Assembly (NCBI RefSeq): GCF_006345805.1
Contig: NW_021836398.1
Span: forward strand, 1 to 26,932
Length of the DNA: 26,932 nt
DNA from: Octopus sinensis
Lineage: Eukaryota
Direction: 5' to 3'
Shown: piece after piece, positions 11,454 to 22,800 of the stretch
Layout of the letters: each line of letters starts with the position of its first letter
Numbering within the stretch: the first letter of the stretch is position 1
The notes under the pieces: generated by a model
What the model was told of the DNA's origin: nothing
Database searches by the model: none
The model's input: the letters and a program-made list of their open reading frames with translations, nothing else
Translations under genes and position numbers: made by a program

Positions 11454-11867
11454 GAGCTGGCAGAAACGTTAGCACGTTGGGTGAAATGCTTAGCGGTATT
11501 TCGTCTGCCGTTACGTTCTGAGTTCAAATTCCACCGAGGTCGACTTTGCCTTTCATCCTTTCGGGGTCGATAAATTAAGTACCAGTTATGTACTGGGGTC
11601 GATATAATCGAATTAATCCATATGTCTGTCTTGTTTGTCCCTTCTGTGTTTAGCCCCTTGTGGGTAGTAAACAAATAGGTATTTCGTCTGTCTCTACATT
11701 CTGAGTTCAAATTCCACCGTGGTCGACTTTGACTTTCATCCTTTCGGGGTCGATAAATTAAGTACCTGTTATGCACTGGGGTCGATATAATCGACTTGAT
11801 TCACATGTCTGTCTTGTTTATCCCGTCTGTGTTTAGCCCCTAGTGGGTAGTAAAGAAATAAGTATTT
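11454..11867 (+). mobile_element. SINE family B with tandem duplication of its 183-bp body
   Basis: GAGCTGGCAGAAACGTTAGCAC head; GGTATTTCGTCTG at 11495 and 11678 begins two similar bodies. Confidence 0.9.
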
Positions 11868-12077
11868 CCCCATGGCCAGACACGTTTTTCACACATGACC
11901 GGAAACTAGCAACCCCGCCTGTTGACAGTGATGCTCATTTACAACCACCATATGATGTCTAGAGACAAGAACACATAAGCACATGCATGCACACATATGT
12001 ACATATGGAAACAGCTGTAAGCCTATAATGCACAAATAAATTTATAATGACCATTACTTATGACAGTTTTCTCATAT

Positions 12078-12304: not shown

Positions 12305-12345
<41 letters not shown>

Positions 12346-12349
<4 letters not shown>

Positions 12350-13797
12350 CTCTTTACTACTTGTTTCAGTCATTTGACTGCGGCCATACTGGAGCACCGC
12401 CTTTAATCGAGCAACTGAACCCCGGGACTTGTTCTTTTGTAAGCCCAGTACTTATTCTATTGATCTCTTTTGCTGAACCGCTAAGTAACGGGGGCGTAAA
12501 CACACCAGGATCGGTTGTCAAGCAATGCTAGGGGGATGAACACACACACACACGCATATATATATATACATATATTCGACGGGCTCTTTTCAGTTTCCGT
12601 CTACCAATCCACACAAGGCTTTGGTCGGCCCGTGGCTATAGTAGAAGACACTTGCCCAAGGTGCTACGCAGTGGGACTGAACCATGTGGTTGGTAAACAA
12701 GCTACTTACCACACAGCCACTCCTGTGCCTATATGTATATATTACTCTTTACTACTTGTTTCAGTCATTTGACTGCGGCCATACTGGAAGCACCGCCTTT
12801 AATCGAGCAACTGAACCCCGGGACTTGTTCTTTTGTAAGCCCAGTACTTATTCTATTGATCTCTTTTGCTGAACCGCTAAGTAACGGGGGCGTAAACACA
12901 CCAGGATTGGTTGTCAAGCAATGCTAGGGGGATGAACACACACACACACGCATATATATATATACATATATTCGACGGGCTCTTTTCAGTTTCCGTCTAC
13001 CAATCCACACAAGGCTTTGGTCGGCCCGTGGCTATAGTAGAAGACACTTGCCCAAGGTGCTACGCAGTGGGACTGAACCATGTGGTTGGTAAACAAGCTA
13101 CTTACCACACAGCCACTCCTGTGCCTATATGTATATATTACTCTTTACTACTTGTTTCAGTCATTTGACTGCGGCCATACTGGAAGCACCGCCTTTAATC
13201 GAGCAACTGAACCCCGGGACTTGTTCTTTTGTAAGCCCAGTACTTATTCTATTGATCTCTTTTGCTGAACCGCTAAGTAACGGGGGCGTAAACACACCAG
13301 GATTGGTTGTCAAGCAATGCTAGGGGGATGAACACACACACACACGCATATATATATATACATATATTCGACGGGCTCTTTTCAGTTTCCGTCTACCAAT
13401 CCACACAAGGCTTTGGTCGGCCCGTGGCTATAGTAGAAGACACTTGCCAAGGTGCTACGCAGTGGGACTGAACCATGTGGTTGGTAAACAAGCTACTTAC
13501 CACACAGCCACTCTGTGCCTATATGTATATATTACTCTTTACTCCTTTACTTGTTTCAGTCATTTGACTGTGGCCATGCTGGAGCACCACCTTTAGTCGA
13601 ACAAATCGACCCCAGGACTTATTCTTTGGAAGCCTAGTACTTATTCTATTGACCTCTTTTTGCTGAACCACTAAGTGACGGGGCGTAAACACACCAGCAT
13701 CAGTTGTCAAGCAATGTTGGTGAGGGGTGGGGGTGGACACACAAACACACACACTCAAATACACACACATATGTATACACATATACATATATACGAC
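12346..13797 (-). repeat. Head-to-tail array of family A SINEs: three 396-bp copies plus one truncated copy
   Basis: Identical ORFs at 12515/12911, 12684/13080 and 12733/13129 (offset 396). Confidence 0.95.
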
Positions 13798-16623: not shown

Positions 16624-17449
16624 TCTTTACTCTTTACTCTTTTACTGTTTCAGTCATTTGACTGCGGCCATGCTGGAGCACCGCCTTTAGTCGAGCAAAT
16701 CGACCCCGGGACTTATTCTTTGTAAGCCCAGTACTTATTCTATCGGTCTCTTTTGCCGAACCGCTAAGTGACGAGGACGTAAACACACCAGCATCGGTTG
16801 TCAAGCAATGCTAGGGGGACAAACACAGACACACAAACACACACGCACACATATATATACATATATACGACAGGCTTCTTTCAGTTTCCGTCTACCAAAT
16901 CCACTCACAAGGCATTGGTCGGCCCGGGGCTATAGCAGAAGACATTTGCCCAAGATGCCACGCAGTGGGACTGAACCCGGAACCATGTGGTTGGTTAGCA
17001 AGCTACTTACCACACAGCCACTCCTGCGCCTATATATATATATATATATAGGTGTAGGAGTGGCTGTGTGGTAAGTAGCTTGCTTACGAACCACTTGGTT
17101 CCACGTTCAGTCCCACTGCGTGACACCTTGGACAAGTGTCTTCTACTATAGCCTTGGGCCGACCAAAGTCTTGTGAGTGGATTTGGTAGACGAAAACTGA
17201 AAGAAGCCTGTCGTATATATATATATATATTTGTATGTATGTATGTGTGTGTATCTGTGTTTGTCCCCCCAACAATACTTGACAACCGATTCTGGTGTGT
17301 TTACGTCCCTGTAACTTAGTGGTTCAGCCAAAAGAGACCGATAGAATAAGTACTAGGCTTACAAAGAATAAGTCCTGGGGTCGATTTGCACAACTAAAGG
17401 CGGTGCTCCAGCATTGCCACAGTCAAATGACTGAAACAAGTAAAAGAGT
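16622..17449. mobile_element. Head-to-head pair of full-length family A SINEs (- 16622-17030; + 17051-17449) separated by (TA)10
   Basis: Both match the consensus over about 400 bp in opposite orientation. Confidence 0.93.
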
Positions 17450-19712: not shown

Positions 19713-19748
<36 letters not shown>

Positions 19749-19753
<5 letters not shown>

Positions 19754-20102
19754 ACAAGTCAGGATAGAAAATGCTAAAATAATTTTAAAAAAGAATATTT
19801 CAGTACCGGTTTCAGTCATTGAGACTTTTTCAACTGTAACAATTAAGATTTCCTAACAAGAATTCACAATGACCTCGAACCCACAACTGTAAAGAAGAGA
19901 GACAGAGAAAGGCAGAAACAAGGAAAATGCCACTTCAATTTGAACACTATACAAATATTCTTTTTAAAAAAACTTTTCTTTTAATTTTTCTAAATTTAAT
20001 TATTTAATCGTTACAGTTGAAAAGGTCTCAAATGACTGAAACCGGTACTGAAATGTTTCTTTATAAAATTATTTTAGCATTTTCTATCCTGACTTGTTTT
20101 TT
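19749..20102. mobile_element. (TA)n-flanked element with about 98-bp inverted arms, each carrying a U3-A8 minimal hammerhead-like motif (19798-19839 -, 20011-20053 +)
   Basis: CAG-TTGAAAA-(A/G)GTC-loop-GACT-GAAA-CCGG-TA-CTG in both arms. Confidence 0.8.
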
Positions 20103-20658
20103 CATATATATCAACTCGTGTGTTCCTTTTCATCTTTATACACACACATACACACACACACACATATATATATACATGCGTGTATATGTGTGTAAAAGGC
20201 AGCATGCTGATGTAGTTAGATGCAGGTTTACACTGAAGTCACAAAATAACGGTAGCAGAATGACAAGATAACAAAAAAACCAACAGAATTAACAACAGAT
20301 AACAGGAAGAATTGTTGATGGTTTAGAATTTAAGGTTCTTTGTCTCTTAATCTGTGTGTGTATATAAGGATGTATACATACACACACCTTACTTATATAT
20401 TCATTATACAGGTATATGCACGTATATATATATATATATATATATATAATATGTATGCTATAGATTTACATTTATACATATATGTGTGCGTGTGTATTGT
20501 ACATATATACACATCTATATATACACTTACATGCATACATACTCACACACATATATATGTCTAAAGAGCTGAGAAGTTAACATAAAACATGCATACACAA
20601 ACATATACAGTTCAGTAGTTAAATGTATACAAAAGGCCTTATATATATATATATATAT

Positions 20659-22045: not shown

Positions 22046-22446
22046 ACAATCGCCATATTGTTTTTATGGCTGCTTTTCCATTTGTTGGCAAAAGTGGAAC
22101 AAAACTCTTAGAGGCAGAATTCTGCAGATGGATGCCTTCCACGTCACCAGCCTTTACTTGTTTTCATTGTCAAGTAATCTTTATTCCATTGAAGTCTATA
22201 TGTCAGCAACCACTAAACTGCAGCATGTACTGTAGACAGGGGACACAAATCTGGTAACCCCATATCACTAACGAGGATGTCATGCACAGAAAACAGTCGA
22301 CATGTATGCACATATGTACATACACACACATGTGCATGCACACACAGACACACACACACAGACACACACAGTGCTGGTGCCATGTAAAAAGCACTGATTC
22401 TGGTGCCATATAAAAAGTGCACATGCCGGTGCCACTTAGGAAGTAC

Positions 22447-22800
22447 CGTGTTGGTGCCACATAAAAAGCACCTGTGCTGGTGCCGGGTAGAAAGCACCCA
22501 TGCTGGTGCCACATAAAAAGCACCTGTAACAGTACCGGGTAGAAAGCACCCATGCTGGTGCCACATAAAAAGCACCTGTGCCGGTGCCGGGTAGAAAGCA
22601 CCCATGCTGGTGTCACATAAAAAGCACCTGTAACAGTACCGGGTAGAAAGCACCCATGCTGGTGCCACATAAAAAGCACCTGTGCCGGTGCCGGGTAGAA
22701 AGCACCCATGCTGGTGTCACATAAAAAGCACCTGTAACAGTACCGGGTAGAAAGCACCCATGCTGGTGCCACATAAAAAGTACCTGTGCTGGTGTCATGT
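22447..22800 (+). repeat. 52-bp minisatellite (about 7 copies) inside a family C element spanning about 22370-23020
   Basis: CATGCTGGTG(C/T)CACATAAAAAGCACC-TGT(GCCGGTG|AACAGTA)CCGGGTAGAAAGCACC at 22499, 22551, 22603, 22655, 22707 and 22759; the family C tail follows. Confidence 0.95.

Follow-up and report, generated by a model that had tools for sequence, protein, structure and literature searches.

A family-wide U3-A8 hammerhead motif in a truncated Penelope-like element insertion of Octopus sinensis

A 26,932-nt stretch of the Octopus sinensis genome (contig NW_021836398.1; hereafter the window) contains two inverted arms, each with a motif that has the outline of a minimal hammerhead ribozyme but carries U3 and A8 in place of C3 and G8. 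The locus raises the question of which element left it, whether the altered core is decay or a state of its own, and whether an RNA of this kind cuts. A descriptor permitting either core found exactly two motifs in the window, one per arm, on opposite strands, ~230 nt apart and both intact. Sequence and descriptor together thus confirmed the hammerhead-like motifs that a preliminary description had reported in both arms. The core fits the pattern expected of a PLE minimal hammerhead, a Watson-Crick 3-8 pair (C-G or U-A) with G12-A14, A15.1-U16.1 and H17; here the 3-8 pair is U-A and position 17 is A.

The insertion and its parent element

The segment 19749-20142 derives from the 3′ pseudo-LTR (pLTR) of a Penelope-like element (PLE), inserted in 5′-truncated form as tail-out inverted copies, with the following parts.

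19716..19748, no strand: (TA)n microsatellite at the left junction (TRF)
19749..19846, minus strand: left arm, ~98-nt 5′-truncated, inverted PLE 3′ pLTR end without the tail (blastn, alignments)
19801..19836, minus strand: left-arm minimal type I hammerhead motif; U3 at 19833, A8 at 19828
19850..20103, plus strand: right arm, longer 5′-truncated PLE 3′ end (pLTR), start approximate (alignment)
20014..20050, plus strand: right-arm minimal type I hammerhead motif; U3 at 20017, A8 at 20022, A17 at 20047
20014-20037, plus strand: CAG (20014-20016), UUGAAAA (20017-20023) and GGUC/UCAAAU/GACU (20024-20037) of the right-arm motif
20038-20050, plus strand: GAAA-CCGG-UA (20038-20047) and CUG (20048-20050) of the right-arm motif, with the palindromic ACCGGU at 20041-20046
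20104..20142, plus strand: one-sided tail, ~39 nt (alignment to a full-length copy)

In this stub, ~98 nt on the minus strand abut ~290 nt on the plus strand, and the tail is confined to the right arm. The left and right arms are 93% identical (blastn; L001 1352-1255), and the right arm can be aligned over its full length to the 5′ and 3′ pLTRs of one long copy (L132) and to the 3′ pLTR of another (L061). The tail corresponds to the stretch between the 5′ pLTR and the first ATG of the full-length copy; with it, the insertion reaches past the interval 19749..20102 first described, to ~20142. No RT or EN sequence was found within the window, and the window copy has no coding sequence. TA runs flank most of the fetched family copies, and (TA)n microsatellites are the usual target of this PLE family.

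Both motifs read CAG-UUGAAAA-stem II-GAAA-CCGG-UA-CUG. In the left arm, read from 19836 to 19801, stem II and loop are AGUC/UCAAU/GACU, and the right-arm stem II is GGUC/GACU with a G-U pair at 10.1-11.1. The AGUC/GACU stem originally given for both arms therefore holds for the left arm and not for the right. The predicted cut sites are 20047/20048 in the right arm and 19804/19803 in the left, the latter placed by standard hammerhead numbering. The Rfam model HH9 (Hammerhead_HH9, RF02275) gave a weak match to the right arm, with a score of 21.2 bits (E 0.0084) against the 52 bits needed for gathering, and no Rfam family reached its gathering score anywhere in the window. Folding of the motifs as monomers gave no stability over shuffles (z −0.67 to +0.53).

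A 19-nt motif word had 2,859 exact matches in the 2.7-Gb assembly, as compared with 1 for the reversed control. Because of this excess, and because the window held only two descriptor matches, the motif cannot be attributed to chance. Eleven long tail-out pairs were fetched and all proved mutually homologous. In L061, the motif is preceded by a 748-aa frame that contains an RT domain (PF00078, RVT_1, E 5.5e-8) and, C-terminal to it, a GIY-YIG domain (PF01541) whose E value of 2.7e-4 falls just short of the curated cut-off. Together with the minimal type I topology, the RT and GIY-YIG of the longer copies bear out the earlier assignment to the Penelope-type minimal hammerheads. The linker between the two domains reads CX4CX2C in the L061 translation. 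A CX2-5CxxC linker between RT and EN marks Neptune/Nematis PLEs in the published classification (PMC8557442), and this linker motif, the single character used for the clade, suggests a Neptune/Nematis-type EN+ PLE. As an additional observation, long (CTT)n/(CAT)n tracts follow the stop codon of the endonuclease, ahead of the pLTR, in L061 (4682-5041) and in the homologous parts of L062-L071.

The order in L132 is pLTR with motif, tail, first ATG, coding region, and second pLTR with motif. The two motifs around the coding region are on the same strand, 4,325 nt apart, and are accompanied by an inverted truncated copy; the first ATG follows the predicted cut by ~120 nt. Among the fetched loci, 30 of 32 tail-out pairs carried the tail on exactly one arm; some of these loci had been retrieved with a tail word, which biases the sample toward pairs with a tail but does not account for the lack of one on the second arm. 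Spacers of tail-out pairs ranged from 30 nt to 4.8 kb. The footprint described for EN+ PLEs by Craig et al. (2021) comprises 5′ truncation, an adjacent inverted copy, a 30-40 bp tail at one end and microsatellite targets (PMC8557442), and it has been ascribed to a process in which both strands are nicked and extended and RT starts at two sites (PMC11167929). The window insertion matches the footprint in these accounts, with no difference of substance.

The two arms (19749-19846 vs 20005-20102) differ at three subfamily-diagnostic sites, namely the base before stem I, position 10.1 and the length of loop II. These differences may stem from two templates or from gene conversion. A general origin of paired arms from different templates was not supported, as most tail-out pairs share their type and private changes.

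Core conservation across the family

The U3-A8 core is a family-wide state and not the decay of one copy. With U3, A8 and A17 fixed, the assembly contained 2,017 exact matches; a pattern that left positions 3, 7, 8 and 17 open but fixed one further base gave 2,043, and the first 100 of these listed were 97 U3-A8-A17, 3 C3-A8 and 0 C3-G8. A further 1,471 matches had a non-G at 10.1 (control 6). Because most of them read AGUC/GACU, stem II of the left arm represents an older subfamily state; its stem and loop recur in many genomic copies, and a private mutation to AGUC was thereby ruled out. Thirty loci fetched by the 3′ half alone had U3 and A8 in 30/30 and the full UUGAAAA in 27/30.

We also sampled copies independently of the motif, fetching 30 loci for each of two words that lie outside it and had 305 and 232 matches. 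The 48 copies parsed from this sample comprised 41 U3-A8, 3 C3-A8, 3 U3-G8 and 1 U3-U8, with no C3-G8, and position 17 was A in 45 and G in 3. The family consensus is therefore UUGAAAA and not CUGANGA, as the preliminary description had anticipated. In four public runs (organisms A-D, the run of organism D having few contigs), no alternative letter reached ≥5% at the core positions, and 10.1 and 11.1 varied.

The canonical CUGANGA core with the ACCGGU palindrome had 358 genomic matches (control 42), and nearly all of those listed lay in other repeat families. Among motifs with the ACCGGU palindrome in this genome, U3-A8 thus outnumbers CUGANGA by about ten to one (2,017 + 1,471 vs 358), the patterns being not strictly parallel, so that censuses based on CUGANGA alone undercount. 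The suggestion of a variant family missed by CUGANGA searches was accordingly upheld; its novelty was not, given the reports of Perreault et al. (2011) and Cervera and De la Pena (2014) considered below.

The loci L073-L101 include at least two unrelated repeat families with a canonical CUGANGA core and ACCGGU palindrome, mostly at GUC sites, one of which forms ~360-nt direct tandems plus inverted copies. A single worn copy of a more distant PLE (32-39% protein identity) was also seen at L127 (G000:C1:54513971-54517001); its motif lies on the minus strand near 1521, keeps the CCGG palindrome together with U3-A8 and A17, and differs in stem I. This core suggests that the U3-A8 variant predates the PLE family of the window.

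For the alignment, 145 of 166 segments were kept and 21, truncated or without upstream homology, were dropped; 49 of the 145 had been obtained through motif-independent anchors, 48 of them being those parsed above. Flanking words assigned 131 of the 145 copies to seven subfamilies, S1-S7 (n = 6, 7, 19, 25, 5, 40 and 29, with S1, S2 and S5 small), leaving 14 unassigned. Divergence from the majority fell from 9.0% to 1.3%. RT/EN matches were present at 12 of 30 non-G 10.1 loci, most of them 54-87% identical to the young protein, which places the older forms in the same PLE lineage.

Among the seven majorities, 0/17 core columns were variable, as compared with 45/69 flank columns (53/106 including the anchor words). 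The corresponding Fisher values (4e-7 and 3e-5) are nominal because columns are non-independent, the upstream alignment is uncertain and the sample was partly picked on the motif. A 16-nt run downstream, which doubled as a search anchor, was as invariant as the core. Loop II took six forms among the seven subfamilies. Pair 3 of stem I was U-A in S1 and S2, A.A in S3 and C-G in S4-S7, and pair 1 of stem II was A-U in S1 and S3-S5, A.G in S2, G-U in S6 and G-C in S7. The G10.1-C11.1 pair occurred in 29/29 copies of the youngest subfamily and was absent from the older ones, and the window arms have G-U and A-U at this position.

Covariation, proposed earlier as a check on the family, was thus obtained in part: stems I and II are kept and show two double-sided changes, but two subfamilies are mismatched, S3 with A.A at stem I pair 3 in 19/19 copies and S2 with A.G at 10.1-11.1 in 5/7. 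The palindromic stem III of the preliminary description was found in all seven subfamily majorities as ACCGGU; the majority of the three motif-independent S1 copies reads CCAG. Taken together, the pattern of substitutions indicates that the motif is apparently under selection.

Predicted cleavage and competing readings

We consider it fairly probable that the window holds a dead 5′-truncated PLE insertion whose family hammerhead is a weak cutter that acts as a dimer, probably assisted by the element's own protein. The monomer cannot form stem III, having 1 bp and a 2-nt loop beyond A15.1-U16.1, and the ACCGGU self-duplex was computed at −8.3 kcal/mol. In full-length elements, the directly repeated pLTR at a distance of 4.3 kb is the likely dimer partner. 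PLE hammerhead dimers are reportedly a subject of work by Lunse, Weinberg and Breaker from 2017. In the mechanism we propose, read-through transcription of a full-length copy would place two motifs of the same sense on one RNA, 4.3 kb apart, and stem III would be supplied by pairing between their ACCGGU palindromes. In the dimer U3 would pair with A8, and the RNA would be cut after GUA, ~120 nt before the first ATG. The PLE enzyme would nick both strands of a TA-rich target and prime cDNA from two start sites, and double priming of this kind, by analogy with published PLE biochemistry, would leave two tail-out arms with the tail on one.

Published work on related RNAs makes the family motif, by analogy, a likely candidate for a weak, dimer- or protein-dependent ribozyme in which cleavage itself is predicted. 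Dimers and trimers of the Schistosoma mansoni minimal hammerhead cut weakly and monomers do not, and the dimer constructs described belong to the C3-G8 family (Sm1), not to the U3-A8 families (PMC4209133). The hammerhead of an anole PLE is protein-assisted, and its compensatory 3-8 double mutant gives partial rescue; the same report describes hammerhead mutants without effect on insertion in vitro and no RNA-seq reads ending at the cut site (PMC11167929).

In the predicted folds, U3 pairs with A17 with a probability of 0.90 in the right arm and 0.36 in the left, for a computed gain of 2.3 kcal/mol. An inactive C3-G17 trap has been proposed for minimal hammerheads (PMC3884650), and U3-A17 pairing may similarly trap the cut site. 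The pairing also enters into the main competing reading, possible but in our view unlikely, in which the motif is hammerhead-derived and selected but does not cut: U3-A17 would lengthen stem I and lock the site, and the fold would bind or position a PLE protein. The U3-A17 probability of the right arm, A17 in 45 of the 48 motif-independent copies and the weak stems of S2 and S3 all fit this possibility, as do the dispensability of cleavage for anole PLE insertion in vitro (PMC11167929) and the Naiad PLEs, which are described as thriving without canonical hammerheads (PMC8557442). However, G5, A6, A9, G12, A13, A14, A15.1-U16.1 and the 3-8 pair are all kept over the seven subfamilies, and because catalytic positions and the 3-8 pair are kept together, catalysis is the easiest account. 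In addition, tertiary-stabilised hammerheads with G17 are still able to cut, though at a lower rate (PMC3884650). A further idea, which we think quite doubtful, is that U3 toggles between A17 (off, with stem I extended) and A8 (on) as a safety catch kept through at least seven subfamilies. If so, the catch would be released only by dimer formation or by the protein of the element, and the RNA would be cut in step with the transposition cycle. In this genome, families with the canonical core mostly carry C17 (~79 of the first 100 matches listed, counted by eye), a base unable to pair with C3.

U3 and A8 could in principle also have arisen by neutral decay toward AT in a dead CUGANGA hammerhead that hitch-hiked in master elements, since each is a transition to A or T, the region has ~26-27% GC, and other invariant runs are present in the flanks. 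Against this, the core columns are constant while many flank columns and loop II vary, the stems show double-sided changes, and older subfamilies with RT/EN only 54-80% identical to that of the young one keep the same core; the decay reading is very improbable and already largely refuted. Even less credible is the proposal that the two inverted motifs of the window are a functional pair dimerizing with each other, despite their short spacing and intact state. They lie on opposite strands, so that one transcript would contain one sense and one antisense copy, and this geometry refutes a dimer in cis, leaving trans pairing of convergent transcripts from the two strands as the one way to rescue the idea. 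For RNA spanning both arms, the predicted structure is a single long hairpin of −143.8 kcal/mol in which the motif is lost. Tail-out pairs, with their wide range of spacers, are moreover the insertion footprint of the family, of a kind described before (PMC4209133, PMC8557442). The pairing of motifs pointed out in the preliminary description is thus the usual PLE footprint rather than a dimer ribozyme. From the opposite orientation of its arms and the predicted hairpin, the window copy is most likely an inactive footprint, and under the preferred reading of a weakly cutting family hammerhead the predicted activity would belong to full-length copies.

Published relatives and neighbouring repeats

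U3-A8 in PLE hammerheads is already published, and the octopus family is an additional example. A descriptor with U3-A8 gave ~1,300 hits in S. mansoni PLEs, and the minimal hammerheads of Cercyon PLEs are described with U3-A8 replacing C3-G8 and with dual opposite-strand motifs 100-700 bp apart (Cervera and De la Pena 2014; PMC4209133). The Sm3 and Sm4 families of that report share with the octopus motif the minimal type I form, U3-A8, a palindromic 15.2-16.2 and the position in the pLTR; the Sm4 example also reads UUGAAAA, and the motifs are mostly single or on opposite strands at 100-700 bp. The octopus family differs from Cercyon in its host and PLE clade (its linker suggests Neptune/Nematis), and its stem II of 4 bp, with no extra base after A9, contrasts with the 7-8 bp and unpaired base typical of the paper. 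It has C-CG-G in stem III and A17, whereas of the two U3-A8 motifs listed in the published alignment, one, reading UUGAAAA, has U17 and the other G17 (PMC4209133). The PLE hammerheads of Oikopleura dioica, Marsupenaeus japonicus and Drosophila Penelope have the same 1-bp helix III, 2-nt palindromic loop and short stem I but a canonical CUGANGA core (PMC4209133). Natural U3-A8 covariation, reported as active in vitro, was described by Perreault et al. (2011) in a section that links it neither to PLEs nor to a stem III lacking a loop (PMC3088659). In the anole element PAc, the hammerhead overlaps the ORF start, whereas the cut in the octopus PLE is predicted ~120 nt upstream of the ATG (PMC11167929). 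A 2026 bioRxiv preprint links retrozymes to PLE pLTRs. The open-licence literature searched contained no paper on the hammerhead of the octopus PLE family in the window.

The significance of the family is modest: it adds a large, age-layered set of at least 3,500 copies to a published variant. Its subfamily series offers natural variants for asking whether and why PLE hammerheads cut in vivo, and whether U3-A17 pairing controls this.

The window also contains an abundant tRNA-headed repeat at 15 places (for example 17420-17442 on the plus strand, and 16642-16664 and 12358-12380 on the minus strand), with tandem and inverted copies in TA runs. Its end, AGUC-AAAU-GACU-GAAAC-AA-GUA, resembles the 3′ half of the hammerhead, with a 15-nt identity to S6 and without the 5′ core, hinting that the repeat may be a SINE moved by PLE enzymes. 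A tandem array at 12335-13716 consists of 3.5 copies of this repeat with a period of 396. Two other tandem arrays, at 11495-11868 and 22371-22794, have periods of 183 and 26/52/104 nt, respectively.
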